This document shows, piece after piece, positions 4,888 to 53,310 of a stretch of DNA of 64,000 bases (position 1 is the stretch's first letter; each line of letters opens with the position of its first letter). Position numbers and translations under genes: made by a program. Below the pieces are notes generated by a model, which had not been told where the DNA came from, searched no databases, and worked only from the letters and a program-made list of their open reading frames with translations. This DNA is from Rhizophagus irregularis (lineage: Eukaryota). The DNA lies in the NCBI RefSeq assembly GCF_026210795.1, contig NC_089433.1:5332001-5396000 (forward strand), in the 5' to 3' direction.

Positions 4888-7653
4888 TTTATTTATTTTA
4901 TTTATTTTATTACTAAAAGAGTGGCAGAACCCAGGCTATTACAAATAGAAGGAGAAAGATTTCGAAAAACTTAAGACTAATATATGTGCATAGACCTTTG
5001 TTCGTCATCCCCTACGGGACCTCACTCTTCGATCTGTACTATTTGATAAAGTAGGACTACGCTAATAAATCAAATGTGAACCAATCAAAAAAAAACTAAA
5101 CTAAAAAAAAAGAGAAGTTAATTGATCCATATTTTTCTTTTGGCCGAGGCCACCACCTGTAAATACTGTCATAGGCGGAATGGTTAACACTATTCTTATT
5201 GTATATACTATCATACTAAATAAAAAAGAAACATAAGAAATAGACAACGTCTATACAAAAAATTGATTCCAAAATAATGAAAAAAAAAACTATATATAGA
5301 TAAAAAAAAGGAACATTAAAAGGATGATTTGGACGATCCCGCCTGCTCAGAATCAAGAGCTAGAGGAGAATCTAGACGGGAGCGTTTATATATATCATGA
5401 GATCTGTGAATATTACTAAAGGTATGATCAGCTCGTTTTAAAGGACGAGTTTCAATTTCCTTGGTGTCATCAGACGTGTACGGTTCACTATCAAACGTTT
5501 TATATGGGTATTCGAACGGAGAACGCGTGGTATTACGCTTTAAAGATAGAGGAGCGGATACACCTGGATAGTTGATCAAAAAAGAATCCATTTCCGATTG
5601 TAAAAGTTTCTTCTTTTGTTTACTTTTCTTTTTCTGGTATTTCGAAAGGGTAGGACGTTGAGGGTTCGACATATCATAATGAAAATCATTATTCCATTGA
5701 GTTAAATCCACCGCTTGACGTTGTCGATATAACACATGGTTAGAACTAGTGCCATGATATCGGGCCAAAGTTTGAATTCGAGCGGCTTCTTCTAATTGAA
5801 GCTTCTTGATATTAAGTGAACGTTCTTCTTGATGTTGTTGATAACGAAGTTTAGTAGCCTGATTTTCGGCATAGAGTTCATCCATTCTAGCGTTAAATTT
5901 AGTGGCCTCAGCTTTTTCAAGGCGTTCATCACGGGTATTTAAATCCAATTGATACATATAAGTAAACCATTCCCTAGAACCAGGGACAATAAAAGAACCA
6001 AAATTATCATAAATAGGATCAGGCGGTATGATATCCCGATATTTAATAGAAATAAACATATCCGGAGTAGGATTATAAGGAGCGACCGTATATAATAAAT
6101 CATCATTAGAAGCCGGAATTAGAGTCGACTCTGTGACATTAGAAGTATTCCTTGTAGTCCTTAATTCCTTGGACGTGTTCGTATTGGCGCTAAAATAATG
6201 CGGAATGGTGAAGTTATAATCCTTTTGTTTGGGGATATCAGCAGTTTTCTTATAATGTAAGTGTCTGAGAGGAGCCGTAAATTTTTGAGATGGTAAAAAA
6301 AGAAATCGTCCTTTTTTAGCTGCAGCCAGTTTCGTCGATGTACTGGAAACAGCACCTGGTTTAATAACTTCTTGTGATAAAATACGACGACAAGAGCGTT
6401 CGAATCTGACTTGTTGCTTTTTAGCTGTCCTCGAATTTGGACTTGGAGTTGAACGGAAGTTATTCATAAGTTTGTGGTAAATGTGAGTACGTCCAGGGTT
6501 GATTTTACGATTCGAATTACAAACAATATATCTAAAATTATAAGAAATCCCCGTTCTTGTAGAGAAAATAGATTTTGATTCTTTTTTTATCCATCGGTCA
6601 AATGTCAATTTAGCGTGAAGCTCTTTGTTCTGAGGGTGGATCTTAGGTGTGAAATCACCATTATCATTTCGTATAAAAGTTAACCCATCTGGATATTTCT
6701 TAAAAAAGTGTAAACCGCATCCGTATCTATTATTAGACATAACTATAGGAGAAGGAACCTCACAACATCGAGGTGGAAGAGATAAGCCTTTCGACTCAAT
6801 TCTGTGGTCGCAAGAAATAAAGATACCAAAATGAAATCTGTATCTTTTATACGAAAAATTGAAAAAAGTTTTCGTTATTGTATTCTTATTGTTGATTTTG
6901 TATTCACGTGATTTGATAAACGTGATTCTATCTAATAATTTTTGGCGTAGCATATTGAAATATTTATGTTGGATACGGCGTGGAATAACTCTTTGTGAAG
7001 AAAAAAAATGCTGAAGACCTTTGCTAATTTGATATTTGGCGTTCGGTAGTGCACTTGTGGAATGATACTCAATAGGGGTAGTTGACATGAGATAATCATT
7101 TGTGTGTATCTTTAAATGAAGCTGATTGGTGTCCAAATGGTGATCAACAATCTCAAAAAAGAAACTTTTTGAACGTCTAAATTCATAGATCTTGTTATAA
7201 CCGGATTTGTATATTCGGGTCACGTGAAATTTTTTGAAGGAAATGAGAAAAGAATTATTTTCACACGAAGGTGGTGAAAGACGTAAAGGAGTGTGGACTG
7301 GTATAGTCAAGAGTGAAGTATCCTGTAGTTGTATATTTGTGCCTAAAACATTATTTTCAGCAAGTCCATCTTCAGCAATATTACTTCTGATATTGGAAAT
7401 AGCGTCCAACTGGCTATAAGATTTCAGAGACTCATATGAAACCGAGGAAAAATCTATCTCGATAAAGTTTGAAGAAGTCATATCCCTAATATATGGGTAT
7501 TAATAAGAACAAAACCTCGTATTGTGACCGAGGCGCCCTACAGGGCCTCTTAACCCTTTGGGTGTTTCAAATAGAAACTAAAAAAAACCTTGCGTTAAAT
7601 TACTGCGGAAAACTAACAAAAATAAAAAAGGGGAAAGAGTTTTTTTTCAGTTC
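4888..7653 (-). mobile_element. Retroposed (TPRT-type) insertion with 16-bp TSD and (TAAA/TAAAA)n tail, carrying one long ORF
   Basis: CATAGATTAATGTGAA at 4872-4887 and 7654-7669. The minus-strand 3' end is an ATAAAATAAAT-type tail at ~4888-4911. The 3' UTR is colinear with that of the LINE fragment at 8360-8570. Confidence 0.85.
5316..7481 (-). CDS. 721-aa intronless protein of unknown function inside the retroposed element
   Basis: Long uninterrupted ORF, less AT-rich than flanks. Basic middle part, possible Cys/His cluster (CDH...CC...CGLH), coiled-coil-like C-terminal part. No RT (YxDD) or endonuclease motif seen. Confidence 0.8.
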   Translation of the reverse strand: MTSSNFIEIDFSSVSYESLKSYSQLDAISNIRSNIAEDGLAENNVLGTNIQLQDTSLLTIPVHTPLRLSPPSCENNSFLISFKKFHVTRIYKSGYNKIYEFRRSKSFFFEIVDHHLDTNQLHLKIHTNDYLMSTTPIEYHSTSALPNAKYQISKGLQHFFSSQRVIPRRIQHKYFNMLRQKLLDRITFIKSREYKINNKNTITKTFFNFSYKRYRFHFGIFISCDHRIESKGLSLPPRCCEVPSPIVMSNNRYGCGLHFFKKYPDGLTFIRNDNGDFTPKIHPQNKELHAKLTFDRWIKKESKSIFSTRTGISYNFRYIVCNSNRKINPGRTHIYHKLMNNFRSTPSPNSRTAKKQQVRFERSCRRILSQEVIKPGAVSSTSTKLAAAKKGRFLFLPSQKFTAPLRHLHYKKTADIPKQKDYNFTIPHYFSANTNTSKELRTTRNTSNVTESTLIPASNDDLLYTVAPYNPTPDMFISIKYRDIIPPDPIYDNFGSFIVPGSREWFTYMYQLDLNTRDERLEKAEATKFNARMDELYAENQATKLRYQQHQEERSLNIKKLQLEEAARIQTLARYHGTSSNHVLYRQRQAVDLTQWNNDFHYDMSNPQRPTLSKYQKKKSKQKKKLLQSEMDSFLINYPGVSAPLSLKRNTTRSPFEYPYKTFDSEPYTSDDTKEIETRPLKRADHTFSNIHRSHDIYKRSRLDSPLALDSEQAGSSKSSF

Positions 7654-9000: not shown

Positions 9001-9614
9001 GAAGAATACATTCAAAATTTTATTTATATTATATGGTTTGAAATTATTGAATAGTACGCAACACACAAAGATCAGCAATCATATGATAATACATTACCAA
9101 TCAAAATGTATAATTTATATATATATATATAAGAATCGAACACATTAAAAAGAATTTGAATAATTTATAAAATAATAAATAAAGTAAAAAAAGAATTAAT
9201 TGGTTACCCTTAACTTTATTTATGATTGTTTGTAAATAATATTTGCGAAAATATAAAATCTATATATAAAATGGATTTAATAATTTTTCGCATATGCTAT
9301 TCGTTCAAAAGATTTATTACCCGTAAATTTGTACAATGCAAATTTTTTTTTTTTTTTAGAAAGTTCTATTTTAAACTTTAATTATTTATAAAACTTCGTG
9401 TGTAATAATAAATAATATGCATGTTTAATTGCAACGTTATTTAATTTGTTGATTAACGTACACCCGAAAGATTCCGTAATCCGAAAAAAATTTTGTTACA
9501 CAATGCAACGTTATATAATTTGTTAATTAATGCACATCCAAAAAATTCCGTATACTTACTTTTTTGTCGTATTCTTTAGTATCTATTAATCTGAATTCAT
9601 TTGTAATTTAAAAA

Positions 9615-12600
9615 ATGAATTTTTTTATCAAGAAGTTATTTAAGTCATTACATATTAAGAAATGTAAAATATGTGAAATATGTGAATATGCATGTCATGC
9701 AATGTATTTTCAGCGAAATTTCAAAAATTGGACTAGTGGTAATAGTGATATTGATAAATTTATTCAAAATAATCAGCTATCAGTTCACAAAGATAATGAA
9801 ATATCACATGTGTTAGAATGGATATCTTATGATAGATTGTATAATATTAAATATATTGCAAAAGATGAATTTGGCGAAATATATCGAGCAAATTGGATTG
9901 ATGGAAATATAAAAAGTTATGTGAGTGTTACATATCAAAATTGTGTTACATATCAAAATTGGGAAAGACATAATAAACATATGGTTGTAGTTCTAAAAAG
10001 TTTAAATAATTTAAAAAATATTACAACTGAAATTGAAAATGAGGTATAATGAATTTATTAATAAAATTTTGAAGTTTTTAATTTTTACTAATATATTTAC
10101 ATTTGTAGATCTATAAACCTTATGGCATAACTCAGAATCCAGCAACAAAAAATTATATCATGGTTTTGAATTATAATAAATGTAAAAAGTGTGATACTAT
10201 ATGTAATGCAATACTCTTTAAACATAAATTCATAGATTGGACTAGTGGTAGTAATGATATTGATAAATTTATTCAAAATATCCAGCTATCAGTTCACAAT
10301 TATTATGAAATGTCACATGTATTAGAATGGATACCTTATGATAGATTGTATGATATTAAATATATTTCAAAAGATGAATTTGGCAAAATATATCAAGCAA
10401 ATTGGATTGATGGATATATAGTTATTAGGGATTATAAAACACAAAATTTGATAAGATATAATCGAAATATGTTTGTAGTTCTAAAAAGATTGAATAATTT
10501 AAAGAATATTACAACTGAAATTAAAAGTGAGGTATAATGAATTTATTAATAAAATTCTGAAGTTTTTAATTTTTACTAATATATTCATGTTTGTAGAATT
10601 ACTATAAACCTTATGGCATAACTCAGGATCCAGAAACAAAAAATTATATCATGGTTTTGAATAATATTAAATGTAAAAAGTGTAATAGAATATGTAATGC
10701 AATACACTTTCAACATAAATTCATAGATTGGACTAGTGGTAATAATGATATTGATAAATTTATTCAAGATACTCAGCTATCAGAACATACTTTTTATTGG
10801 GTAACAAATGCATTGGAATGGATACCTTATGATAAAATGTATAATATTAAATATATTTCAAAAGATGAATTTGGCGAAATATATAGAGCAAATTGGATTG
10901 ATGGATATATATACAATTGGAATAATACAAATAAAAATTGGATGAGAAAATATCAAAATATGTTTGTAGTTCTAAAAAGATTAAATAATTTAAAGAATAT
11001 TACAACTGAAATTGAAAATAAGGTATGATGAATTTATTAATAAAATTTAAAGTTTTTAATTTTTACTAATATATTTATGTTTATAATAGTATTACTGTAA
11101 ACCTTATGGCATAACTCAAGATCCAGAAACAAAAAATTATATCATAGTTTTGAAAAATATTAAATGTAAAAAGTGTAATGGTATATGTAAAGCAATACAC
11201 TTTCAACATAAATTCATAGATTGGACTAGTGGTAATAATGATATTGATAAATTTATTCAAGATACTCAGCTATCAGTTCATAATAATATAAATATTAAAG
11301 TATCACAAGCATTAGAATGGATACCTTATGATAGATTTTATGATATTAAATATATTTCAAAAGATAAATTTGGCGAAATATATAGAGCAAATTGGATTGA
11401 TGGAGAAATAGAGTATTGGGATAATGGAAATTGGAAAAGATATAATCAAAATATGTTTGTAGTTCTAAAAAGTTTAAATAATTTAAAGAATATTACAAAT
11501 GAAATTGAAAATGAGGTATAATGAATTTATTAATAAAATTTTGAAGTTTCTAATTTTTACTAATATATTTACATTTGTAGGTCTATAAACCTTATGGCAT
11601 ATCTCAGGATCCAAAAACAAAAAATTATATTTTGGTTTTGAATTATAAATGTAAAAAGTGTAATAGAATATGTAATGCAATACACTTTCAACATAAATTC
11701 ATAGATTGGACTAGTGGTAATAATGATATTGATAAATTTATTCAAGATACCCAGCTATCAGAACATACTGATTTGGTAAACAATGCATTAGAATGGATAC
11801 CTTATGATAGATTGATTTATATTACAAAAGATGAATTTGGCAAAATATATCAAGCAAATTGGATTGATGGAGAAATAGAGTATTGGGATAATGGAAATTG
11901 GAAAAGAAATAATCTAAATATTTTTGTAGTTTTAAGAAGTTTAAATAATTTAAAGAATATTACAACTGAAATTGAAAATGAGGTATGATGAATTTATTTA
12001 ATAAAATTTGAAGTTTTTAATTTTTACTAATATATTGTACATTTGTAGGTCTATAAACCTTGTGGCATAACTCAAGATCCAGAAACAAAAAATTATATCA
12101 TGGTTTTGAATTATGAATGTAACGAATGTGATGATATATGTAATGCAATACACTTTCAACATAAATTCATAGATTGGACTAGTGGTAATAATGATATTGA
12201 TAAATTTATTCAAGATACCCAGCTATCAGAACATACTGATTTGGTAAACAATGCATTAGAATGGATACCTTATGATAGATTGTATAATATTGTAAAAGAT
12301 GAATTTGGCAAAATATATCAAGCAAATTGGATTGATGGAGAAATAGAGTATTGGGATAATGGAAATTGGAAAAGATATAATCTAAATATTTTTGTAGGTT
12401 TAAGAAGTTTAAATAATTTAAAGAATATTACAATTGAAATTGAAAATGAGGTATGATGAATTTATTTAATAAAATTTGAAGTTTTTAATTTTCACAAATA
12501 TATTTACATTTGTAGGTCAATAAACCTTGTGGCATAACTCAAGATCCAGAAACAAAAAATTATATCATGGTTTTGAATTACTATAAATGTAAAAAATGTA

Positions 12601-14690
12601 ATGGTATATGTAATGCAATACACTTTCAACATAAATTCATAGATTGGACTAGTGGTAATAATGATATTGATAAATTTATTCAAGATACCCAGCTATCAGT
12701 TCACAAAGATATTGAAATATCACATGCATTGGAATGGATACCTTATGATAGATTGTATAATATTGTAAAAGATGAATTTGGCAAAATATATCAAGCAAAT
12801 TGGATTGATGGAGAAATAGAGTATTGGGATAATGGAAATTGGAAAAGATATAATCAACATATGTTTGTAGTTCTAGGAAGTTTAAATAACTTAAAGAATA
12901 TTACAACTGAAATTGAAAATGGGGTATAATAAATTTATTAATAAAATTTTGAAGTTTTTAATTTTACTAATATATTTATATTTGTAGGTCTATAAACCTT
13001 GTGGCATAACTCAGGATCCAGAAACGAAAAATTATATCATGGTTTTTAATAATAATAAATGCAAAAAGTGTAATAGAATATGTATTGCAATACACTTTCA
13101 ACATAAATTCATAGATTGGACTAGTGATAATAATAATATTGATAAATTTATTCAAGATACCCAACTATCAGTTCATAATAAAATTGAAATATCACAAGCA
13201 TTAGAATGGGTACCTCATGATAGATTTTATAATATTAATTATATTGCAAAAGGCGGATTTGGCAAAGTGTATAGAGCAAATTGGATTGATGGAAATCTAA
13301 TTAATTGGGATAATGAAAATCAAAATTGGATGAGATATAATCAAAATATGTTTGTAGCTCTAAAAAGTTTGAATAATTCAAAAAATGTTCCATTAGAATT
13401 TATGAATGAGGTATAATATGATTAATTATTTACTATTATTATACCTAAATTATTAATTTTACTATATTTTTTCTTTTGTATAGATTATATTGCATAATAA
13501 AGGAGGCATAGATAATGATTTTATTGTTAGATTTTATGGAATAACTCAAGATCCAGAGACAAAAAATTATATGATGGTTTTAGATTATGCAGAAGGTGGG
13601 AGTTTACGAAATTATTTAGATAAAGAATATAATAAGCATAATTGGGATAAAAAGATTGTTTATTTACGATATATTATAGATGGACTTAAATGTATTCATG
13701 AAAAGGAATTAGTTCACCGAGATTTGCATATTGGAAATATATTAAAGTTTAAAAATAAAACTGCTATAACTGATATGGGATTATGTAAACCTGCAAATTA
13801 TAATGCATTAGAAAATACAAATAATAATATATATGGTGTTTTGCCTTATATTGCTCCTGAGATTTTAAGAGGACAAAATTATTCTAAAGCTGCTGATATT
13901 TATAGTTATGGTATAATTATGTATGAAGTAATTTCCGGATTACCTCCATATTATCATTTAAGCCATGATAATAATTTAGCAATCAAAATTTGTCAAGGTC
14001 TTAGACCAAGGTTTAGCATTGAAGTACCACAATTAATTGTGCAATTAATTAAAAGATGCTTAGATGCCAATCCATTAAATCGACCAATAGCAAAAGAAAT
14101 TAATAGTATTTTATACATATGGAAATATATTTCAACTAATGAACAAAGCAAAATATTACAAGCACAAATTAATAAAATAAACAAATATTCATTAGATAGC
14201 TGCATAACTCCAATTAACTTAGGAATATCAAATAATACACATTCAGGAGCTATTTATACAAGTAGGTTACTTGATTTTAATAGTCTTCCTGAACCAAAAA
14301 ATTCAGACGATTATTATGAGCAATATGATAATATTATAAGCAAGGAATTTTCAGGTATTATTAATTGTTTTATTATCTTAAATATAAATCAGGTTTAAAT
14401 ATACTAATAAACTTTTATTAAATAGATTCTTTACAAATCGATATATCTCAATTAAATAATACACATTCAGGAGCTATTTATACAAGTAGGTTACTTGATT
14501 TTAATAGTCTTCCTGAACCAAAAAATTCAGACGATTATTATGAGCAATATGATAATATTATAAGCAAGGAATTTTCAGGTATTATTAATTGTTTTATTAT
14601 CTTAAATATAAATCAGGTTTAAATATACTAATAAACTTTTATTAAATAGATTCTTTACAAATCGATATATCTCAATTAAATATTAATTAA
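9615..14690 (+). CDS. TKL protein kinase with 8 tandem N-lobe modules (gene A)
   Basis: Exons 9615-10043, 10109-10531, 10597-11022, 11090-11515, 11581-11982, 12049-12450, 12516-12923, 12988-13410, 13484-14354, 14426-14578, 14650-14690; all GT-AG and frame-compatible. Final module has KGGFGKV and VALK; C-lobe has HRDLHIGN, DMG, APE. Confidence 0.9.
14230..14682 (+). repeat. 224-bp tandem duplication of exon end + intron + next exon start
   Basis: TCAGGTATT at 14351 and 14575; copies identical by eye; absent from paralog gene B. Confidence 0.9.
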
Positions 14691-16099
14691 GATGCAAGAT
14701 TTCAATTTAATTATTTGTATTCAATATATTATTTTATTTTTTTTTTTTTAGGTGCAAAAAAACGAATATAACATTATTATATACTGATATTACTATGTTT
14801 TTTTGTAAATCATTACAATTTAAAATTCTGTTTAACATAGATTTCTTAACATTGACGTTAAAATACAGTATTTTGAAATTAGAGTCAGTGAGAATTGCGC
14901 TAAATAGGATTTAAATTTTAACGACCATTTTTTTTTAAATTATATATTTATTTTATATTTGTTAGTTAAATAAAATTTTCAAATTTAAGCAATTATAAGA
15001 TGTTTGGCTTATCATTTTTCAAGTTCAATTCACAATTGTAATAAAAAAGAGAAAGAAATTTTTTTTGATTCTGTCCTGGTAAACTGGCGAATATCCATCA
15101 CTCCTCTGAAATAGATTTAATTATATAGTGAGCGATTTCAACTTCATAATTGTACAAGATCAGCCCCAAAGAAACTGCAGACATAGCCACCTGGTCACAT
15201 GTCAACGTTCAAAATTAAATAAACAAGATCAGAACGATCCTAAGGATAAAATATACAAGGTTAGAACAAATAATCAAATGAAAGATGAAGAAAAAACAAC
15301 TGGTTAGTTGCTATAAAGTGTAATGAAAATAGATTCTGAAATTCTAAAAAACCTAAAACATAATCATTTACTAGGGTACCAATGTTGAAAACCTATAAAA
15401 AAAAATGGTTATAAGGAACTGTAGCAATAAAAAAAGAAAACGAATATATTAAAAAAAGCTTACCTCTAGGAATATAAAAAGAATAGGAAAGGACGTTAAA
15501 AAATTATCCATATTTGATGAACAATCAGGTAGTATCACCAGAGTTACTATTCCACCCGGGTTAAAACTAGATATATTCAAAATTAGTAAGATACTATTGG
15601 AATTTGGATACATTGAGTGAACTTATTTTTAAAAGTATATTTATATTTTATTAAATTATTGAAATTATTGAAAAATAGTATTTATACAAATAGATACACA
15701 GAGTTACCAATTCTATTAACATTGCATTATCCACTTTTATTACATCTTGATCAAAAGAGCAAATTTCTAAATTTTGACAAGAAATGTTTTTTTTTTTTTT
15801 TTTTTGAAAAAAAAAATAATAATTGTCTAACAGCTTTATCCATCATTAATGGTAAATTAAAAAATAAAAATATTTGTTATAATATTTTAAACTAAATTCT
15901 GAAGTTTATATACACAATAACCAAAGTTCACCAAACCTATTTAGAAACTTTACTCAGCTAAATAACAGACTGTTTGCTCAAACTCTAAAAATATAAACTT
16001 GTATTTGATTACGTAATGTTATTATCAAATACTCAACAGATGTAGAAACAATTTCATTAATAGAGAAAATAGAAGACACCTTCGATTACGCTTGCTAAG

Positions 16100-20489: not shown

Positions 20490-22204
20490 GGAAAAAGACA
20501 TAGATTTTAGTATTAACGATATTAATAATATTACACATTATATTTGTAGAAATTGTATTTTTATTTTTACATAAAAAAAGTATCATAGTAACATCATTAT
20601 ATATAAATTTTCTTTATTAGCATTAATATTATAGTTAATAATAAAAAAACAATATTTAAATAAGTATTATTATATAGTCATATTAATTAAATGTATTTCA
20701 TTTTAGTTATATAGATTCAAATAAAGAAACAATATATTTATTTCAATTATTTCGCGGAAATGATCTTGTAGTAAAAAAAAAATCCTAAATTTACCAATAA
20801 GAAAAAAAGAAACAAAAAAAAGGTGCTTACCGTTGCCTGCAGAACCGATCCGATCACCCGATCCAAACCTAAATGGTGAAAAATTCGGTTGGAAAAAAAA
20901 GTCAAACTGAAAAAAGAAAAAGTGAAAAAAAATTTTTCGGATTGGAAAAAAAGCCAAAGCCAACCCGAGAAAAGAAAAATGTTTAAAGAATTCGAAAAAA
21001 AAAACCGAAAAAAAAAATTGGGAAAGAGAAAAATCGGTTGAAAAAAGAAACCGAAAGGTAAAAAGAAAGAAAAAATAAAAAGAAAAAAAGAAAAAAAACC
21101 AAAAAAAAATTTGGGGGAAATAAGAAGGATAAACAAAGAAATTGGTTAGAAAAAAGGGAAATTTCTGAAAGAAAGGAATCCGAAAAAAAAAATAAGTATT
21201 GAAAAAAAATTCTGAATAATTCGGTCTAAAAAGATCGAAATTTTTTTTTTTAAAAAAAAATAATATAAAAAAAAATCGGTCTTAAAAGGCCGAAACAATA
21301 GGATTATTTAATAAAAAAAAAATTTATTCTGTTTGGGAAAAAAAATTAAACCTAAATGGAAAAAGAATGAGAAAAACAAATTTTTCGATTTGAAGCTAAA
21401 AAAATATTTGAAAAAAAAATCGAAAATAATCAACAAAAAAATTTCCGATTAACGTTAACTGTTAAGGTAAAAATCTCATTAACTGAAATTGGATTAAATA
21501 GATCAGGTGGAGGCATGTCACGATTGTCACGGGTTTTAATTATATGGAATGGGATTTTAAGTTACATAATTCTAATTATTTATACGGAGACTAATCCAAA
21601 CGTCAGACTAGTTATATAGATTTAGAAGTTTCAATTAATTGTCTATAAATCCTCTTAAATTTTAGTATTCATAACAAATAGATTCGATTTTCTCTTTTTT
21701 TGGACATTTTTTTTGATTTTTTTAGAAAAATATTAATCAAAAAAAAAATAAGCGACAGAAAAAAAACAGGAAGTTTTAAGAAATAAATATATTTTTTTCT
21801 CGTAGACGATCATACGCCTTAAGTATCTGTTTATGTTGATCAAATACAAAACCTCTTCGTATGATGATAGTCATGATACGATTATGACCCTAAGAATGAG
21901 TTCAAGATTTGTTATACAAAAATTTCTACAATACAAAAATATTTATTTTAAGCAATTTTTTTTAAAAAAGTTTCTATTTTAAAACTTTTATATTATTTTT
22001 AAAACTTCGTGTGTAAAAATAAATATGCATGTTCATTGATGCGCCAGATGCGGTGATGCAGTGTCACTCTGTCATGTGGTATATCAATAGAAATTCAGCC
22101 GTTACACCATCAATTTGTATATAATTTGTATAACTTCGGTTTATTTGGTTTTTTTTTGCACCCCGTTTAAACAAATTCATATAAAAAAACATTCTATAAT
22201 CATT

Positions 22205-24140
22205 ATGTCTACCATTCGAATGAAACAAGTTAGTCAAGCAATTAATAGAGCATGGGCATCACTTGATTATAATACTCACGGAGGCTTACATGCTACATAT
22301 GAATATATACGACAAACAATTCTTAATGATAGCTCTCTTACAGATGATGAAAAAACTGAAGCAATAAGAGAAAGTAATAAAGATTATGACCGAGATAAGA
22401 TTAGATGTAATATAGGAACAAGAAGAATTTGTGAAAATTGTAATCAAAAATGTTTGGCTACATTATATTGCGAATATTGTGTTCAAAATTATTTAAAAGC
22501 AAGATTTTCAAATTGGACGTCTGGAAGTAATGATATTGACAACTTAATACAAAAATGTCAATTGGAAACTCATGAACCGGCAATGATAGTAGAATGGATC
22601 CCATATAATAATTTACAAAATATTAAACATCTAACTAAAGGGGGATTCTCTGATATTTATACAGCAAATTGGATTGACGGATATTATATTGAATGGGATA
22701 CTAAAAAGCAACAATTAACAAGATTCGGAACTCAGCATGTAGCACTTAAAGAATTAGTAAATGTTGAAGGTGCAAGTCAAATTTGGTTTGAAGAGGTTTG
22801 TAATCTAATGACTTTTATTTAAACTTTTTTTAATTATTATCAATAAATTTAAAATATACTTCCATAGGCCAAATCTCATTTAAATATAAGCAATAAATAT
22901 CCAAGAATTGTCAAGTGTTGTGGTTTAACTCAAAATCCATCAAATGGAAATTATATGCTTGTATTAAATTGGAGGGATGCAAATTTAAGAGAATATTTAC
23001 AACGAAATCATAGTCGACTTACGTGGAAAGAAAGAATTAAAATCGTTTTTTCAATAATTGATGCGCTTCGTTGGATTCATAAAGAGAATTCGATTCATAG
23101 AGATTTGCATTCTGGAAATGTATTATATTCACAATATGCAGATTCTTGGTGTATTAGTGATCTTGGATTTTGTGGTCCTGCAGATAAATCATCAAAAAGT
23201 ATATATGGAAATCTTCCTTACATAGCGCCCGAAGTTATTTCTGGAAGAAAGTATTCTTTTGCATCTGATATTTATAGTATTGGTATACTTATGTGGGAAA
23301 TTTCGTCTGGACAACTTCCTTTTTGTAATTATGAACATGATTATAACCTTGCAATGAACATAGTTAATGGCGTAAGACCAAGAATAGTACCAGGAACTCC
23401 CTTAGAATATGAAAATTTAATTAAACAATGTTGGGATGCTGATTCACTAAAAAGACCTAACATTAATACACTTTTGTATGAAATTAGTGAAATTAATGCA
23501 TCATTTCAAAATGTGTCAAATGAATCACAAGCAAATAATAATTTAAACAAAAGTAACTTAGAAAAAAATTATACTAGTAAAATGTTATTTACAAGTAAAG
23601 TCCATCAATTTGAAAATTTTCCTGAACCAAGGAATGCGACAAAAGGTATAATTACATTATATATTTATTGGATTTTTATCAATGTTATTTTTATTAATAT
23701 TATTTCCTTAATTATACAATATGATAACAGAAGAACAAGAAGGTAACGCCAATTTAATGGGTTTATCTAAAATTGATCTATTAATAAATTGATTTGTTTA
23801 TTATAATAACTTAAAATATTACTTATTTATAACAGCATTTTATAGTAAATCGTATGACTTAAACATTCCTGATAACTGTAAGTATTTTTTAAAATATTTC
23901 GTCAAATTTTAATGTATGTTAATATTTATTAATAATATTTTTTCATTTTTTCCCATTTTTAGTTGATGATTCCAACTCAAATTACGCTAGTACATCTAAA
24001 ACAAGTAGAAAATTAAAAGGTAGTCATTTATTTTATATATTATTTGATTTATTTGATGTATTAATCTAATTTCTTAATTTTAGGATTTAGTAAAAGATTG
24101 TCTAAAATATTTAAACCCCTGAATCTAAATTCAAAAAATG
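22205..24140 (+). CDS. TKL protein kinase with a single N-lobe (gene C); last exon uncertain
   Basis: Exons 22205-22795, 22868-23645, 23731-23742, 23836-23877, 23963-24019, 24084-24140. Motifs CENC..CEYC, WTSG, KGGFS, VALK, HRDLHSGN, DLG, APE. The next acceptor (~24220) reads TG, not AG. Confidence 0.88.
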
Positions 24141-24811
24141 GTAAGTAAATATACAGTATTAATGCATTTTATATTGTTAGTACAAGCGTTTTATTAAATA
24201 TAATTTAAAAAAAAAAATTGATATTCAAAAATGATTAAATGATTATAAAGGGATAGGAAACAATGCAACTACAGGCTGAATGACGTAAATTGATATTGAT
24301 ATTAGGTGAGATATTTTTTTATATTAATATCTTTATATTGATTTCACTTCATAATTAAATTAAAGTTTTAATGAGTAATTATAATTAGTTTGTTTATTAC
24401 TTTACAGATTATATGTCTCATTTTATTTTGGAATTTTTTTAAACACTAAGACTAGAGTACAGTATAAAGAAATCTCTTAGTTTGTAATTTAAATAATTCT
24501 CCTATATTTATATAAATTTAAAATTATTAATATATAAATTATCAACTTATCTCAGTTTAAATAACATAATGTAAATGGTATATTTATGATATCTAACAAA
24601 TATTTTGTATTTTATCCTCAATTGAAATATCTTTTATAAAACATTCTAGATTATTATTTAGGAGTTTCAACTTTCAATTAATTGCCTGTAAGTCCTCTTA
24701 AATTTAGTAGTATTAATAATTCAAAAAGGAAAATTTTAAGATATAAGAAATAAAATTATGTCAAGTGCGAACGCTTTTTAGTATTAATTTATGTAGATCA
24801 AATACAAAATC

Positions 24812-27800
24812 TATTCGTTCAAAAGATTTGTTACCCAAAAATTCGTACAATGCAAATTTTTTTTTTAGAAGTTCTATTTTAAACTTTAATTATTTATAAT
24901 ACTTCGTGTGTAATAATAAATAATATGCATGTTCAATTGCAATGTTACATAATTTGTTGATTAGCGTACGCCCGAAAGATTCCGTAATCCGAAAAAAATT
25001 TTGTTACACAATGCAACGTTACATAATTTGTTTACCCAAAAAATTCCGTATACTTACTTTTTTGTCGTATTCTTTAGTATCTATTAATCTGAATTCATTT
25101 GTAATTTTAAAAAAAAAGTCAATGGATTTTTTTATCAAGAAGCTATTTAAGTCATCACATATTAAGAAATGTAAAAAATGTAAATATGCATGTCATGCAA
25201 TGTATTTTCAGCGAAATTTCAAAAATTGGACTAGTGGTAATAATATTATTGATAAATTTATTCAAAATACTCAGCTATCAGAACATACTTATTGGGTAGA
25301 AAATGCATTAGAATGGATACCTTATGATAGATTGTATGATATTAGATATACTGCAAAAGATGAATTTGGAAAAGTGAATAGAGCAAATTGGATTGATGGA
25401 TATCTAACTAATTGGGATAATGAAAATCAAAATTGGACGAGAGTAAACCAAAATATGTTTGTGGTTCTAAAAAGTTTAAATAATTTAAAGAATATTACAA
25501 CTGAAATTGAAAATGAGGTATAATGAATTTATTAATAAAATTTTGAAGTTTTTAATTTTTACTAATATATTTATATTTGTAGGTCTATAATAAACCTTGT
25601 GGTATAACTCAAGATCCAGAAACAAAAAATTATATCATGGTTTTGAATTATAATAAATGTAAAAAGTGTAATAGTATATGTAATGCAATACACTTTCAAC
25701 ATAAATTCATAGATTGGACTAGTGGTAATAATGATATTGATAAATTTATTCAAGATACCCAGCTATCAGAACATACTGATTATATTGTAAAAAATGCATT
25801 AGAATGGATACCTTATGATAGATTGTATGATATTAAATATATTTCAAAAGATGAATTTGGCAAAATATATCAAGCAAATTGGATTGATGGAGAAATAAAG
25901 TATTGGTATAATGGAAATTGGGAAAGATATAATCAAAATATGTTTGTAGTTCTAAAAAGTTTAAATAATTTAAAAAATATTACAATTGAAATTGAAAATG
26001 AGGTATAATAAATTTATTAATAATTTTTGAAGTTTTTAATTTTTTATTAATATATTCATGTTTGTAGAATTACTCTAAACCTTATGGCATAACTCAGGAT
26101 CCAGAAACGAAAAATTATATCATGGTTTTGAATAATATTAAATGTAAAAAGTGTAATAGTATATGTAATGCAATACACTTTCAACATAAATTCATAGATT
26201 GGACTAGTGGTAATAATGATATTGATAAATTTATTCAAGATACTCAGCTATCAGTTCATAATAATATAAATATTATAGTATCACAAGCATTAGAATGGAT
26301 ACCTTATGATAGATTTTATGATATTAAATATATTTCAAAAGATAAATTTGGCGAAATATATAGAGCAAATTGGATTGATGGAGAAATAGAGTATTGGGAT
26401 AATGGAAATTGGAAAAGATATAATCAAAATATGTTTGTAGTTCTAAAAAGTTTAAATAATTTAAAGAATATTACAACTGAAATTGAAAATGAGGTATAAT
26501 GAATTTATTAATAAAATTTTGAAGTTTTTAATTTTTACTAATATATTTATATTTGTAGGTCTATAATAAACCTTGTGGTATAACTCAGGATCCAGAAACA
26601 AAAAATTATATCATGGTTTTGAATTATAATAAATGTAAAAAGTGTAATAGTATATGTGATGCAATACACTTTCAACATAAATTCATAGATTGGACTAGTG
26701 GTAATAATGATATTGATAAATTTATTCAAGATACCCAGTTATCAGAACATACTGATTATACTGATTATAGGATAAAAAAGATAAAAAATGCAATAGAATG
26801 GATACCTTATGATAGATTGTATATTGCAAAAGATGAATTTGGCAAAATATATCAAGCAAATTGGATTGATGGAGAAATAGAGTATTGGGATAATGGAAAT
26901 TGGAAAAGATACAATCAAAATATATTTGTAGTTCTAAAAAGTTTAAATAATTTAAAGAATATTACAACTGAAATTGAAAATGAGGTATAATGAATTTATT
27001 AATAAAATTTTGAAGTTTTTAATTTTTACTAATATATTCATGTTTGTAGGTCTATAAACCTTATGGCATAACTCAGGATCCAGAAACAAAAAATTATATC
27101 ATAGTTTTGAATAATTATAAATGTAAAAAGTGTAATAGTATATGTAATGCAATACACTTTCAACACAAATTCATAGATTGGACTAGTGGTAATAATGATA
27201 TTGATAAATTTATTCAAGATACCCAGTTATCAGAACATACTGATTATACTGATTATAGGATAAAAAAGATAAAAAATGCAATAGAATGGATACCTTATGA
27301 TAGATTGTATATTGCAAAAGATGAATTTTGCAAAATATATCAAGCAAATTGGATTGATGGAGAAATAGAGTATTGGGATAATGGAAATTGGAAAAGATAT
27401 AATCAAAATATATTTGTAGTTCTAAAAAGTTTAAATAATTTAAAGAATATTACAACTGAAATTGAAAATGAGGTATAATGAATTTATTAATAAAATTTTG
27501 AAGTTTTTAATTTTTACTAATATATTTATATTTGTAGGTTTATAAACCTTATGGCATAACTCAGGATCCAGAAACAAAAAATTATATCATGGTTTTGAAT
27601 AATAATAAATGTAAAAAGTGTAATAGAATATGTAATTTAATACACTTTCAACACAAATTCATAGATTGGACTAGTGGTAATAATGATATTGATAAATTTA
27701 TTCAAGATAGCCAGCTATCAGTTCATAATAATATTGAAGTATCACATGCATTAGAATGGATACCTTATGATAGATTGTATGATATTAAATATATTGCAAA

Positions 27801-29970
27801 AGGCGGGTTTGGCAAAGTGTATAGAGCAAATTGGATTGATGGAAATCTAATTAATTGGGATAATGAAAATCAAAATTGGATAAGATATAATCGAAATATG
27901 TTTGTAGCTCTTAAAAGTTTGGATAATTCAAAAAATGTTCCATTGGAATTTATGAATGAGGTATAATTTGATTAATTTAATCTATTGTTTATTATTATAA
28001 TACTTAAATTGTTAATTTTACTAGTATATTCTGTATTTTTTTTTTTATATAGATTATGTCGCATAATAAAGGAGGAATAGATAATAATTTTATTGTTAGA
28101 TTTTATGGAATAACTCAAGATCCAGAGACAAAAAATTATATGATGGTTTTAAATTATGCAGAAGATGGAAGTTTACGAAATTATTTAGATAAAGAATATA
28201 ATAAGCTTAATTGGGATAAAAAGATTGTTCATTTACGATATATTATAGATGGACTTAAATGTATTCATGAAAAGGAATTAGTTCACCGAGATTTGCATAT
28301 TGGAAATATATTAAAGTTTAAACATAAAATTGCTATAACTGATATGGGATTATGTAAACCTGCAAATTATAAAACATTAGAAAATACAAATAATAATATA
28401 TATGGTGTTTTGCCTTATGTAGCTCCTGAAATTTTAAGAGGACAAGGTTATACCAAAGCTGCTGATATTTATAGTTATGGTATAATTATGTATGAAGTAA
28501 TTTCCGGATTACCTCCATATTGTGATTTAAACCATGATAATAATTTAGCGATCAAAATTTGTCAAGGTCTTAGACCAAGGTTTAGCATTAAAGTACCACA
28601 ATTAATTGTGCAATTAATTAAAAGATGCTTAGATGCCAATCCATTAAATCGACCAATAGCAAAAGAAATTAATAGTACTTTATACATATGGAAAAATATT
28701 TCAAGTAATGAACAAAGCAAAGAATTACAAGTACAAATTGAGGAAGCGGGTGAAATAAACGAATATTCATTAGATAGCTGCATAACTTCAATTAACTTAG
28801 GAATATCATATAACACACATTCAGAAGCTATTTATACAAGTAGGTTACTCGATTTTAATAATCTTCCTGAACCAAAAAATTCAGACGATTATTATGAGCA
28901 AAATGATAATATTATAAGCAAGGAATTTTCAGGTATTATTAATAATTTTGTTATTTTAAAATATAAATCAGTTTTAAATATACTAATAACTTTTTATTAA
29001 ATAGAATCTTTACAAATCGATATATCTCAATTAAATATTAATTAAGATGTAAGATTTTAATTTAGTTATTTGTATTCAATATATTATATTATTTTTTTTT
29101 TAGGTGCAAAAAACGAATATAACATTATTATATACTGATATTACTATTTTTTCTTTCGAGAACATGCAAATCATTACAATTTAAAATTCTGTTTAACATA
29201 GATTTTCTTAACATTGACGTTAAAATAGTACAGTATTTTGAAATTAGAATTAGTGAGAATTGCGCTAAATAAGATTTAAATTTTAATGACCATTTTTTTT
29301 AAATTATATATTTACTTATTTTATATTTGTTAGTTAAATAAAATTTTCAAATTTGAGCAATTATAAGATGTTTGGCCTGTCATATTCCAAGTTCAATTTA
29401 CAATTGTAATAATATACAAAGAGAAAGAAATTTTTTTTGATTCTGTCCTGGTAAACTGGCGAATATCCATCACTCTCTGAAATCGATTTAATTATATAGT
29501 GAGCGATTTCAACTTCATAATTGTACAAGATCAGCCCCAAAGAAACTGCAGACATAGCCACCTGGTCGCATGTTAATATTCAAAATTAAATAAATAAGAT
29601 CAGAACGAAACTAAAGATAAAATATACAAGGCTAGAACAAATAACCGAATGAAAGATGAAAGAAAAAAACAACTGGTTAGTTGCTATAAAGTGTAAAGAA
29701 AATAGATTCTGAAATTCTAAAAAACCTAAAATTTACCATTTACTGGGGTACCAAAGTTGAAACCCTATAAAAAAGAAAATGGTTGTAAGGAACTGTAGCA
29801 AATAAAAAAAGAAAACGAATATATTAAAAAAAGCTTACTTCTAGGAATATAAAAAGAAGAATAGGAAAGGCTCATAAAAAATTATCCATATTTGATGAAC
29901 AATCAGGTAGTATCGCCAGAGTCGGTTAAAACTAGATATATTCAAAATTAGTAAGATACTGTTGGAATTA
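24812..29970 (+). repeat. Segmental duplicate of ~9297-15600 (upstream region, repeat kinase and ~0.9 kb downstream)
   Basis: CTATTCGTTCAAAAGATTT at ~9297 and ~24811; downstream 14690-15600 matches 29045-29970. Confidence 0.88.
25122..29045 (+). CDS. TKL protein kinase with 6 tandem N-lobe modules (gene B, paralog of gene A)
   Basis: Exons 25122-25517, 25583-26002, 26068-26493, 26559-26984, 27050-27472, 27538-27960, 28053-28932, 29005-29045; frame-compatible; catalytic motifs intact. Confidence 0.9.
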
Positions 29971-32900: not shown

Positions 32901-33021
32901 TAGAAACAATAAAATTTTTTTTTGTAACTCTAATTATGATCAGTTACTGCATAACCGCCACTCTTACTTTGAATTGCATAAAATTTTCATAAAATAAAAA
33001 TTGCCTTTTTAATCAGCAAAA

Positions 33022-34464
33022 ATGATTTCTAATATTATAAAATGTTTTCATAAGGGTGTTATTCCATCTCAATTTGCTACTCGATTTCTTCAATTATCAA
33101 AATTTAACTCAAAACCTAATTACAAAGTTCAATCATTATATTCAAGATACCATACAATATCCTTTCCTAATAAATATGAAAAATGGAAATCAACTTACTT
33201 TATCAAAAAAAAAAGATGGCCACCAATACAAAATTATTTGCATTATAATAATTGTGAATATAATAATACAAGCAAGTTGTTTAATATCATTCTATATGGA
33301 TGTGGTTTAATCATTCCATATGGAAGTTTAATATATTTGGCTCAGTCTTATAAGCAGCATAATATTAAAATCTTGGAAAAAGAAATACTAAAAGAGGTTG
33401 TATTACCAGATGGTTATATTTCCCGACCTGAAGTTATTGAACAAATCAAAAAAATTTTTCAGCCAGATAATGATCATTCATATTATCATGTTATTTATGG
33501 TGAAGTTGGAACTGGAAAAACAACATTAGTTAAAAAAGCAATCAAAGAAGTTGGAAAAGGTGTAATATATATTGACATTGGAGAATTTGAACGAGATCAA
33601 AGTGAGTTATTTATTATTTATTTTGTCGTTGATCACTATTTTTGATTTTAATTTTATAAATGAAATAGGTATGACTTTGAATTCTTTAAAGCATATTGCT
33701 GAAATGTATAAAGCAAAGTATAATAAACCTCCAGTTATTATTTATGATAATGTTGAATATTTAATTCATAACAATCCAGAAATTCTTGATATCTTACAGG
33801 ATGATGCAAAGGATAGTGCTGACAACAGAAAGTACATTGCAGTGTTTGTTGCCAATGAAGCAAATGTTATAATGAGAATGGGATGTAAGTACTGAAATCT
33901 ATTTCTTTTTGTACTTTTAAAATATACTTATATAATGCAATTTTTATTTAAGCTCGTAGTTCTTGGTCATGTGCATCAGTGATGGAAATTGGCAACTTTA
34001 ATGAAAAAGAATCAATGGAATATTTAACTAAGAAACGCAATATCAATGAAGTAGATGCAAAAAAATTATATGAATTAGTTGATAGTAATTTTTTAGACCT
34101 TTATGCTGCAGCAGATGAGTTTCTTGATACAAAATCTTTCGAAGGTAGGAATTAGTTTTATTATCAATTCGCGTCAGTCAAATAGAATCATTCTTACCAA
34201 CTTTTTTTCATAGATATTAAAAAGGGAATAACAAAAGAAATCGAAAGAAAATCTATTATAAAATACAAATATCATGAAGTAAGAAATAAAATTTTAAAGG
34301 CTTTATTAGAATGTAAAAAGTTTAGAGTTATGGATTTTTTTGATAATTATGAAGATGCTGGTAATTTCTTATATTTTGACATATTTGCATATCATCCAGA
34401 AAGTGATAATATAACATTTCAGTATGAATGGTATATTAGAGAAAATGCTAGTGAATTCAGGTAA
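33022..34464 (+). CDS. P-loop (AAA-like) ATPase domain protein with basic N-terminus and one hydrophobic segment
   Basis: Exons 33022-33601, 33669-33884, 33953-34144, 34214-34464 join in frame; Walker A GEVGTGKT, Walker B-like VIIYDN. Confidence 0.85.
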
Positions 34465-44123: not shown

Positions 44124-46011
44124 TCATTCAATATTATCTTCACCATCTTGACAAATTTCATTTAGCTCTATAAAAAAAACAATAAATTAGATATAGAATA
44201 TCAATAAAATTACAAATAATAATAACTTACCTAATTCACTTAATTGAACATCTAAGCATTCTGAAACTGTATATTATGAATTTATAGTATTTAAATGTTA
44301 GTAAATTTAAATAAAATAATTATAATAATAAAGGGAATACTTACTTGGATTTGCTGATGTTGATTGAGCAGTATAACTAGTATCTATTAAATCATAAAAT
44401 AACATTAATAATGTAAAATGGATTATTTGATAAAACAAAATAAAATTTAATTACCTGAACTGAATTGAAAAGATGATAAACCTGAAGAATTTACTGGTTT
44501 TGGAAGATTTTTGAAATTTAAAAGTCTACTAGTATAAACTGCTTGTGGATGCGTTTTGAAGCTTTTGGATTTATCTTCATTTGACCTGTTTTTGAATTTT
44601 TCCTTTCTAATTTTATCACATTCTTTGATTTGAAAATAAATTTCACCATTTTGACCTTTGGCACCATTATACCATCCATTTAGTGTTTGATACAACTCTT
44701 TAGTGGTTGGTCTATTTTTTATTTCAGCATCCCAACATTTTACCATCAAATCTGCAAGTAACTTTGGTATGTCTTTAGAAATTGTTGGTCTAAGTCCTTT
44801 ACATATTTTAATAGCTAAAAATTCATTGTGAGGAATATCATTAAAAGGAATTTCTTCAGAAAGAAATTCGTTCATTATTATCCCAAATGAGTAAATATCT
44901 GCTGCTTTTGTATATTGTTGTCCACGTAAAACTTCTGGTGCCATATATGGTAATACTCCATAAATTCCTTCTTCTTTAACTGTTTGCTTTATATTTGCTG
45001 GTTGACACATTCCTAAATCACTTATATATGAAGAACTATAAGCTATTAATATATTGCCTGAATGAAAATCTTTGTGAACTTTTTCAGCATTATGAATATC
45101 TAAAAGTCCTCTTGCAATTTGTTGTAATTTATAAATTTTTGAATTATAATTTATATAATTTTCAGATTTATTTAAATAATTTCTCAAATTTCCATCTTCA
45201 CAATATTCTATAACCATCATATAATCTTTATTATTTGGATCTTGAGTAATTCCAAAACATTGAATAATATCTACAAGATGAATCTGAAGATGAGATTTAA
45301 TCTAATTATCATAAAAAAGGAAAAATTTTATTAATAACTGAAATAAATGCAAATAACAAACTTTATATACAAGAAAAAGTAAGTTTAAATTACCTCATTT
45401 AAAAAATCTGAACATATATCAGAAGAATTATTCAAACTTTTTAATGCATATTTATTATTCTTGAATCTAGACCATTTTTGATTTTCAATATCCCAAGTAC
45501 AAATATATCCTTCAGGCCATTCAGCTGAATAAATCTTACCAAAACCACCTTCCGCAATATAAGTGATATTTTGAAATTTTTCAAAAGGTATCCATTCAAG
45601 ATATTTTTTATGATATACAGCATTAAGTTGTGATTGCTGTATAAATTCATCAATATCTTTATTTCCACTAGTCCAATTTTTAAAGTTATCTTTAAATCTT
45701 TTAGCATTACACGATTGACACCAATCTTCTCCAGTGCCAGGTTCTTTACATTCTCCACATATTCCATATGCTTGTTTTCTTTTTTCTAAATCTCCTATAT
45801 AAACTACTCTTTCATCTACATTTTCTGATTCAATAGTTGAATCAATAGTAGGAATTGTAACATGGCGCTTTTAATAGACAATAAATTATTAATATTTTTA
45901 ACTACAAAAATTCAATAAAATAATTTATAATTATTAAAAATATTAAATTGCTATTACCAGATATTTATTATAATCAGTACTCACCCATAAATTTTTTGGG
46001 GTTTCATCCAT
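44124..46011 (-). CDS. TKL protein kinase, single N-lobe (gene D)
   Basis: ATG 46011; exon ~45867-45394 (CGEC..WCQSC, WTSGN, EGGFGKI, YALK); exon 45301-44455 (HKDFHSGN, DLG, APE); three short 3' exons; TGA 44124-44126. First donor ambiguous. Confidence 0.88.
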
Positions 46012-51102: not shown

Positions 51103-53310
51103 TTTTTTTTTTTTTTTTTTAAGGTTCAACTCATATATTTATTAATTTTAGAATAAAGATACAAAACGCGAGTTACAAAAATAAAGCTCTAGCTAACTAG
51201 TTACTAAATAGTTGTGGGGGGATAAGAATTAATTGCTCTACGAGACGATCTAAATCCCACTGCCGACCCATAAACAACTTTCACCCATCTACCTGATGGA
51301 CTACTGGAAGACGTATCAACCTTAATAGCGTTTATAAACTACACTAACACCTACTGCACCTTTAATTAACTACACTACTACTAATAAATTAAAAATTCTA
51401 TAAACATAATAACAAAGAGCTACGCTATTATAGTACACAACAATTATAGTAATCAATTATTTTTCCTCCATATCTAATGTAATTAACTAATCCTTCTGTA
51501 TCATTATATTTTTTATCTGTAGGAGGTTTTTTTGTTGTTATACATTTTTCTTTACCATATTGTTCTTTTAAAACATTTTTTGTAAGTCCTAATGCGATAT
51601 TAATTTCATGATAGACAGAACATCGTTCATTCCAAAAATCTCTAATTAAATCGAAAGAAATTTTCCGGAAATTATATAAAATTTCCTTTGTTTTTTTATA
51701 ATTTTTTAATTTTCCATTAATAAATTTACATAAACTTAAAGGAATTATTCCTTTTATTATATCAATACTTGTAAAAAAATCTTCTCTAATTGAATTATCC
51801 CAAATAAAAGGTAAATCTGGCAAATCAATATCTTCTACATATAATGCTTGATTTTCTATTTGATCATTAATACTATCAATTAAAATTTGTTTTATCTGTT
51901 GAATTAATATAAAATTGTCTTCTGATCTTTGGTTACATGTCCAAACATGATTAAATTCTTCTTTTCTATATTACATATTGGACAAAAACGATCTTTAAAA
52001 ATTGAAAAACATGATTTTTTAATATGTTCTATTGTAGGTATTTCTTCAATAAGAAATTGAATCTTTTTTCGCTTTAACTTAGATTCATAAAAATCTGTAT
52101 GCATAGTACCTTGATCTCCTTGTAGCAGATAAAATGTAATTTCCCAATCTACTTGTAGTTTTCGATATTTATAATTTCGATTAAGATTTAAAAATTGTTC
52201 CAGATTAAAAATATTTGTATATATTTTTAAAAATTTTCTTAAACTTAATTCTATTGGTACACCATTCCAATTAGGAAAAAATTTAATTAATGATAGTGAC
52301 GTTGTTTTAATATTGATTCCTAAATGTTGTATGTAATTATATTTATCTTTCAAATGTTGATTAAATATCGAAAAATTAAGATCATTTTCCTGAACAAGTA
52401 AGATATTAACATCTAATGATAATGTTTTAACAATTTCAAAAATTATAATCCACATATAATTATGGTGTTTTAATTTAAAAATTTGTCGACTTGTTAATGA
52501 AAAAAAATTATTAATTCTATAATTATTATATGTTTCTATTAACGATTTATCTTTTGTAAGAATAGTTATTCTACTATTATCTGGTAATATAATTATAGAA
52601 CATAATAGTGCTAAAATTGATCTAATATAAATGTCGAATTCAAATCAAATGTACTAAAACCAAAAATTGATTCAGCTTTATCTGTGCCTATGTTTTTTGC
52701 TGATCCATCTATATAAGTTAAAAATTGTTTAACGATAGTATTAATCTTTGAGAATATAATAAATCTGATTTATTTAAAGATAGATCTATATATTTATCAA
52801 TTATATTAACATTTTGATTCTGAAAATTCATTATAAACCTTGAGTCCATAACTTTGATAATATTGTGGATTTAAATTTAATTGTTGATTTATTTCCATTA
52901 TCTGAAAAATATCTACGTATTGAGTTTTTGGTAGAACTAATGTTTTATTTTTTTCAAATTTATCTGTAAAATTTTTTGTTTTTTCTCCTACTAAAAACAT
53001 ATTAGATGTTTTAAGCTTTAATAACCATTTTTTTGATTCACGAGTATCATTTGCAAAATTACAACCAGAACAAGTTTGAACTTCCATATAAATACTTTGT
53101 TTATCACTTGTAACAATATAATGTCTAATAATATATTCTTCTCCCTTTTTTTCTTCATCAAAAATTCTTCCTATTTGTAATCCATTATTCCAAAACATTA
53201 TAAATTGTTTTTTCTTAGATTCATTTGGCGAAATTAATTCGTAACCTTTTAAATTATTAATTATATTACTTTACCGATAACGTGGTTTCAATAAATTCGT
53301 ATATTTATCT
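51103..53310 (-). mobile_element. 5'-truncated, frameshifted LINE (RNase H-like and Cys-rich C-terminal ORF2 remnants) with poly(A) tail and TSD
   Basis: T-run 51102-51120; 20-bp TSD with one mismatch AAAAACGTTA(G/A)TTTCGCTAT at 51083-51102 and 53311-53330; YIDGS near 52710, CPIC, FWNER. Confidence 0.88.

Follow-up and report, generated by a model that had tools for sequence, protein, structure and literature searches.

Trimmed kinase N-lobes as a tandem repeat ahead of a TKL kinase in Rhizophagus irregularis and related fungi

We analysed a stretch of 64,000 nucleotides of Rhizophagus irregularis (contig NC_089433.1, positions 5,332,001 to 5,396,000, forward strand), which we call the window and in whose numbering all positions are given. 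It contains a predicted kinase gene, G1, in which the N-lobe of the kinase domain is repeated: modules 1 to 7 have KD(E/K)FG in place of the Gly-rich loop and no C-lobe, and module 8 alone, with KGGFG, enters an intact C-lobe. An earlier note on this DNA had described this pattern, and it stands. The architecture, a kinase preceded by repeats of the N-lobe only, is widespread in arbuscular mycorrhizal (AM) fungi and apparently undescribed. We propose, with a probability of around 0.5, that the upstream N-lobes are a variable protein-binding array that regulates the terminal kinase.

The modules of G1 and their predicted fold

The G1 model is a single frame of 4404 nt for a predicted protein of 1467 aa, with GT-AG boundaries at 10 of its 10 introns. 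Its exons are the following:

9615..10043, + strand: exon 1, ATG, basic N-terminus and module 1 from the Cys knuckle to alphaC (KDEFG)
10109..10531, + strand: exon 2, beta4-beta5 of module 1 and then module 2 up to alphaC (KDEFG), phase 0-0
10597..11022, + strand: exon 3, module 3, KDEFG, Lys in the column of the alphaC Glu
11090..11515, + strand: exon 4, module 4, KDKFG, 98% DNA identity to exon 3 of the paralog G2
11581..11982, + strand: exon 5, module 5, KDEFG, Arg for the beta3 Lys
12049..12450, + strand: exon 6, module 6, KDEFG, Arg for the beta3 Lys
12516..12923, + strand: exon 7, module 7, KDEFG, Gly for the beta3 Lys and for the alphaC Glu, mosaic
12988..13410, + strand: exon 8, catalytic N-lobe with KGGFG, VALK and the alphaC Glu
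13484..14354, + strand: exon 9, alphaC-beta4 loop, beta4-beta5, kinase C-lobe (HRD, DMG, APE) and C-tail
14426..14578, + strand: exon 10, in-frame phase-1 exon of 51 codons, from a perfect 224-bp tandem duplication of the C-tail
14650..14690, + strand: exon 11, with the stop codon

Every exon could be accounted for as module, C-lobe or tail. Exons 1 to 8 (9615-13410) were open in 8 of 8 cases, with a length multiple of three and in phase 0. Their conserved GT donors lie after alphaC and the AG acceptors 64-67 nt further on, and the intron preceding the C-lobe exon has 73 nt. The tandem array shows a period of around 468 bp, with 7.1 copies and 87% matches, which confirms the units of ~470-490 bp, all open and in phase 0, that had been noted before. 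The array was also correctly placed at 9615..13410, but the gene does not end there, since three further exons take it to 14690. The pairwise DNA identity of the eight copies was 75-95%; because they differ from one another, an assembly artefact is disfavoured.

The window also holds a paralog:

25122..29045, + strand: G2, six modules (five degenerate, one catalytic), predicted protein of 1144 aa

The tandem array of G2 lies at 25159-27967, and both genes belong to one segmental duplication that includes both flanks (~9297-15604 and 24811-29969). The translation of G2 is that of the NCBI Rhizophagus irregularis protein P0004 in 1105 of the 1105 residues compared, and the gene model of P0004, itself a prediction, splices G2 identically, with all the exons in order. 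The perfect 224-bp tandem duplication at the 3'-end of G1 (14227-14674), which is absent from G2, is either very recent or an assembly artefact. Another duplication, of 18 bp, in tandem and in frame, is found in exon 1 of G1 (9925-9961), where it gives a longer variable beta2-beta3 hairpin.

Regarding the reading frame, no stops were observed in the 14 module exons of G1 and G2, against around 20 expected under neutral drift. This expectation comes from a parsimony minimum of 240 substitutions and from 8.4% of neutral changes making a stop in this AT-rich sequence; the Poisson probability was ~2e-9, gene conversion ignored. Furthermore, among the 12 internal exons 8 of 8 distinct gaps were multiples of three, the corresponding figures being 1 of 5 for the introns and 5 of 14 for the 3' flank. 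This pattern shows that the predicted module exons are under selection for read-through.

Exon 9 matched the Pfam families PF00069 (124.7 bits) and PF07714 (124.3 bits) above the curated cut-off, the Pkinase match having E=5.6e-36. The motifs of the terminal kinase are complete (KGGFG, VALK, EFMNE, HRDLHIGN, DMG and YIAPE), and judging by them the domain is an intact TKL (tyrosine kinase-like) kinase. We found no transmembrane segment in G1: the highest 19-residue hydropathy was 0.87, located within the C-lobe. Values above 1.6 appeared in 4 of 120 relatives. Because a hydrophobic segment is absent, the predicted protein is most likely cytoplasmic, and the name of receptor kinase that it had been given does not hold in the membrane sense. 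A Pfam scan of five G1 and two G2 exons gave kinase families alone, without NACHT or NB-ARC.

Each module follows the same order: C-x2-C-x3-C, a helix, WTSGN, a helix ending in QLSxH, a variable loop, LEWIPY, beta1-beta2, a variable hairpin, beta3, alphaC and, after the intron, beta4-beta5. The earlier note was right about a Cys motif, although it gave the spacing as CxxC-xxC and did not have the conserved His of QLSxH. It also took each upstream module for a whole N-lobe, whereas the modules are trimmed: from the alphaC Glu to beta4 there are 4-5 residues in the upstream modules of G1 and 17 in module 8. The beta3 Lys is gone from modules 5-7 and the alphaC Glu from modules 3 and 7. An upstream module lacks the C-lobe, the Gly-rich loop and the alphaC-beta4 anchor, and is accordingly predicted to be unable to form an ATP site. 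The knuckle of three Cys and one His likely binds zinc, a prediction based on the conservation of these residues in 90-97% of the 462 upstream modules compared below.

The module exons matched no family in Pfam, where we only found a sub-threshold HIN match (E=0.1). A search of PDB sequences with the module profile gave weak kinase matches only (best E=0.084), and the ESM Atlas gave only kinase-like clusters of Mucoromycota, with no named non-kinase cluster. The AlphaFold2 model of P0004, built with 65 aligned relatives, had a mean predicted local distance difference test score (pLDDT) of 79.5 and a predicted template modelling score (pTM) of 0.50. Every module in it shows the same set of elements, with an alphaC of at most 9-10 residues in the upstream modules versus 16. 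A two-module model reached a pLDDT of 89.1 and a pTM of 0.71. Its best structural matches were kinase N-lobes, namely mouse RIP3 (Z 10.3, root mean square deviation 2.4, 74 aligned), PTK7 (Z 10.2) and MLKL (Z 9.9), which count as tied because they lie within 1 Z. Foldseek added RIPK2 and EGFR matches spanning around 100 columns, and its top rows were tandem-domain kinases, JAK and EGFR-KDD; these reflect the presence of two N-lobes per chain and not a common function. The fold search barely covers residues 1-50 of the model, that is, the Cys knuckle and the WTSGN helices. The upstream module is predicted to keep the fold of a kinase N-lobe, with a five-stranded sheet and a shortened alphaC.

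Relatives, origin and shuffling of the modules

A search with exon 4 of G1 gave 512 longer proteins from 2574 candidates, and the database names listed for the matches were kinase-like or hypothetical only. The best 120 of the 512 all came from R. irregularis, R. clarus or R. diaphanus, with 3-13 module matches each; these counts include fragments, and the search favours long arrays. We compared 462 upstream with 78 terminal modules of near-full length, leaving out G1, G2 and P0004. The three Cys were kept in 442, 436 and 447 upstream modules and in 73, 71 and 71 terminal ones, the conserved His in 416 and 65, and the Trp of EW in 460 and 76, respectively. In contrast, a GGFG-like loop was present in 4 upstream and 62 terminal modules, the beta3 Ala in 23 and 67, the beta3 Lys in 394 and 76, and the alphaC Glu in 249 and 75. 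The median alphaC-beta4 segment was 7 residues upstream and 16 in the terminal modules. These counts show a selective loss of the presumed catalytic features upstream, with the framework residues kept. The same rule appeared among 265 sequences, where a Gly-rich loop was found in 99 of the 103 modules preceding a C-lobe and in 48 of the 842 others, some of which are the last modules of truncated gene models. It is also obeyed by the one-, two- and three-module forms among the close relatives of the G1 kinase.

When 1.84 billion representatives were searched with the module profile, 3128 matches reached E<=0.001. Within the best 150 of them, a set of 27 that we looked up comprised 21 from Rhizophagus, 4 from Acaulospora morrowiae, 1 from Ambispora leptoticha and 1 from Diversispora epigaea. 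The Diversispora protein (P0212) was excluded as an example of this architecture, since it repeats an intact Gly-rich loop. Rhizophagus is placed in the Glomerales and, according to the taxonomy that we looked up, Acaulospora in the Diversisporales and Ambispora in the Archaeosporales. The predicted layout of a degenerate N-lobe array therefore recurs in three orders. Related exons at 50-60% identity were also found in seven metagenome contigs, from soil or other sources, and two of these (L001 and L003) carry three to four units in a row, in which the loops are degenerate and the introns lie at the same place. The idea that the N-lobe has turned into a non-catalytic repeat, already put forward in the earlier note, is thus borne out by a predicted fold that is kept and by its recurrence across the Glomeromycotina.

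Two side observations concern these relatives. In a subgroup of Rhizophagus proteins (P0128, P0146 and P0167) the upstream modules have no Cys knuckle, so in some predicted arrays the knuckle is dispensable. One single-module kinase (P0316, 47% identity) is labelled as coming from the endosymbiont GvMRE; ligands or targets might come from bacterial endosymbionts with kinases of the fungal type.

In a tree built from 154 modules of 22 proteins picked by hand, the modules clustered by lineage, alongside their own terminal modules. The support was 97 for Ambispora, 99 for Acaulospora, 99 for the three-Cys Rhizophagus group with G1 and 85 for a four-Cys Rhizophagus group that includes the Cys-less subgroup. 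We also forced one clade on the upstream modules, which were 18 of the 27 modules taken from nine proteins. This was 146.6 log-likelihood units worse, and all the tests rejected it (fast trees and 2000 replicates, which the program deems too few for the approximately unbiased test). Therefore, we reject one common origin for the upstream modules, and either there were at least four origins or the modules are continually regenerated from the terminal one.

The intron after alphaC is probably ancestral in the family, as two single-module kinases of the window suggest:

22091-23746, + strand: single-module TKL kinase, WTSG extension, phase-0 intron after alphaC
44447-45870, - strand: single-module TKL kinase, WTSG extension, phase-0 intron after alphaC

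Both have the phase-0 intron at the identical site. Because this ancestral intron of the family is carried along, any internal tandem duplication gives symmetric exons. The symmetry is inherited and therefore no evidence for exon skipping, which weakens the argument for skipping that the earlier note drew from it.

The modules of the window have recombined: across 63 informative sites, compatibility between neighbours exceeded that after shuffling (p=0.0005), and some exons are mosaics, such as exon 7 of G1, which is nearest to exon 6 of G2 in one segment and identical to exon 6 of G1 in the next. Furthermore, upstream modules showed 67% identity within a protein and 54% between proteins. At the DNA level the modules undergo concerted evolution and repeat shuffling.

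Possible functions of the array

A tandem duplication may have joined the hinge of one kinase copy, at the end of beta5, to the Cys knuckle of the next copy, dropping the C-lobe and keeping the phase-0 intron that ancestrally follows alphaC. The unit would then have been multiplied and shuffled by unequal crossing-over and gene conversion, and the diversity of the array would come mainly from this reshuffling of DNA, not from exon skipping. In the protein, the conserved framework would display the variable loops and imitate the surface that kinases of this same family have on their N-lobe. A partner docking there would cause the terminal kinase to cluster or to be released; regulators of kinases, microbial effectors and non-self proteins are the candidates. 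A more specific proposal, which we regard as quite doubtful, is that the N-lobes are recombining decoys and that these proteins are intracellular immune or non-self receptors. The bait array would trap proteins that target kinases and so activate the attached kinase, and the trapped proteins could come from endobacteria, mycoparasites, the host plant or foreign nuclei.

In favour of a binding array are the frame that is kept, the retained predicted fold, the selective loss upstream, the recurrence in three orders and in soil contigs, the rejection of one clade of upstream modules and the recombination among modules. Within the modules of the window, changes concentrate in the beta2-beta3 hairpin and in the loop that precedes LEW. 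In the 44 columns that are conserved in other proteins, the ratio of nonsynonymous to synonymous rates (omega) was 0.22 among the window modules (2dL 17.8 versus omega=1). With one tree, a class of sites under positive selection was favoured, the 2dL being 36.9 for 136 columns and 14.7 (p=0.0007) for 109 gap-distant columns. The omega=1 fit for the class of low-conservation columns had apparently not converged and was left unused.

Nevertheless, several results weigh against a binding array. The overall omega among the window modules was 0.85 and did not differ from 1. When each of three segments was given its own tree, the positive selection dropped to 2dL 5.7 (p=0.058), so that diversifying selection in these sequences is borderline once recombination is allowed for. 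Regardless of what the modules do, making the downstream kinase requires that the frame stay open and that the N-terminus can fold, so neither is proof of a job of the modules' own. Over 215 codons of the kinase exon, G1 and G2 are separated by 20 amino-acid changes and 4 synonymous ones. Their divergence there is 4.8%, compared with 5.6% and 7.1% in the flanks, and the catalytic exon appears to be weakly constrained between the two genes. Regarding the repeat number, a relative with eight modules (P0003) has the same number of them in the same order in 5 of 5 records, with 96-100% identity per module, and this locus is therefore not hypervariable. We found no annotated protein of at least 509 aa that matches the G1 kinase above 88%, and hence no allele of G1 among them. 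Allelic variation of module number was also considered for three pairs with 100%-identical C-lobes and unequal module counts, but in all of them near-identical modules were missing or shortened, and annotation is the likelier cause.

According to the main rival, the repeats are neutral duplication churn within a huge kinase family under weak constraint, and the array is a by-product that is tolerated: selection keeps only the frame and the folding that the terminal kinase needs, and the unmaintained catalytic features decay. This is possible, if rather unlikely. The omega of 0.85 and the weak constraint on the kinase exon agree with it, as does the range of 1 to 13 modules in relatives. The unrelated second in-frame exon duplication at the 3'-end of G1 indicates that such units arise easily, and the kinase genes are high-copy and enriched in CG methylation, according to the part consulted of PMC8647823. 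However, Cys, His and Trp are kept upstream as well as in the terminal modules, long arrays exist in at least four lineages, the order of the eight P0003 modules is constant, and a residual signal of omega above 1 persists in the loops. Alternatively, the array might mainly serve structure or autoregulation and not the sensing of outside ligands, for instance as a spacer, as a surface for self-association or as an inhibitor in cis like the JAK pseudokinase, and its loop variation would be incidental. The pTM of 0.71 for two modules suggests a preferred packing, the framework exceeds the variable part, and JAK and EGFR-KDD lead the Foldseek rows, although by virtue of their two N-lobes. We consider this clearly unlikely, given that the pTM of the whole protein is just 0.50, that module number differs widely between paralogs and that the variation is confined mostly to a few loops.

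Two further explanations have less weight still. Eight exons in phase 0-0, any of which can be skipped without loss of frame, could yield many isoforms, but we find this very improbable. The symmetry was inherited from the intron seen in the two single-module kinases, the introns of 64-67 nt flank exons of ~420 nt, and the public gene model of G2, although a prediction, joins every exon in order. Exon skipping is moreover comparatively rare in fungi, as stated in the part consulted of PMC6142364. The least credible explanation is an untranslated or artefactual array with only the last module and the C-lobe expressed. The lack of a long annotated protein for G1 in the searches made would fit it. 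Nevertheless, stops and frameshifts are nil, the copies have diverged and are mosaic, the same architecture is found in many assemblies and soil contigs, and there is no Met near the start of the module 8 domain except inside the repeated beta5 strand.

Comparison with known systems

The expansion of TKL kinases in AM fungi has been described (PMC4219462, PMC6123716, PMC8647823, PMC10234402 and PMC11736945, all consulted in part), and 2,533 kinase genes are given for R. irregularis in the passages seen of PMC10234402. The terminal kinase of G1 belongs to these expanded PF07714 kinases, and the two single-module kinases of the window share with it the Cys/WTSGN extension and the intron after alphaC. 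The published passages covered do not mention repeated N-lobes, and the module has no Pfam family. We found no description of N-lobe repeats in these fungi in the passages covered of the open full-text literature, subscription genome papers and supplements being outside the search.

In plants, the tandem kinase proteins (TKPs; RPG1 and WTK1-4) likewise fuse a degenerate kinase-derived unit to an active kinase, repeatedly by duplication, as JAK does; for the plant TKPs a decoy or regulator model has been proposed (PMC8761531, consulted in part). However, TKPs and JAK carry one whole extra kinase-like domain, whereas the G1 family carries up to about a dozen trimmed N-lobes with a Cys/His extension. 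Two complete kinase-like domains are not found in G1, which has one C-lobe and upstream units that stop at beta5. The closest conceptual counterpart is the KIND domain, the kinase non-catalytic C-lobe domain of Spire and PTPN13, in which a lone kinase lobe is reused as a non-catalytic interaction module. KIND is a C-lobe and usually single, while the repeat of G1 is an N-lobe, in tandem and still joined to its parent kinase.

The array was likened in the earlier note to the repeats of fungal NLRs. In the passages seen of PMC4986451, the WD, ANK and TPR repeats of the NWD-type NLRs of Podospora combine high internal identity, shuffling within and between genes and variable sites on a conserved frame, and the G1 array is alike in this. 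The likeness holds for recombination (p=0.0005) but not for the domains, since NACHT and NB-ARC are absent and the G1 repeat derives from the effector domain itself. Also unlike the fungal NLR repeats, positive selection is borderline here and one related locus (P0003) has no polymorphism of repeat number.

The finding marks a recognisable subclass within the ~2,500 kinases of R. irregularis, whose repeat lacks a Pfam family and has several origins in the subphylum. The N-lobe of a kinase can probably survive as a repeat unit when its C-lobe is absent. Isolated modules and module swaps would give a handle on whether this expansion serves recognition or is neutral churn.

Other parts of the window were only looked at briefly. 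By eye, the long open reading frames (ORFs) or ORF fragments at 5316-7499 and 51428-53270, both on the - strand, are transposon-like. An ORF of 638 aa at 59296-61212 (-) has a Cys motif that we take to be MYND-like, and one of 258 aa at 54434-55210 (-) presumably resembles the C-terminal part of a superfamily 1 helicase. Finally, an ORF of 210 aa at 33013-33645 (+) carries the P-loop motif GEVGTGKT.

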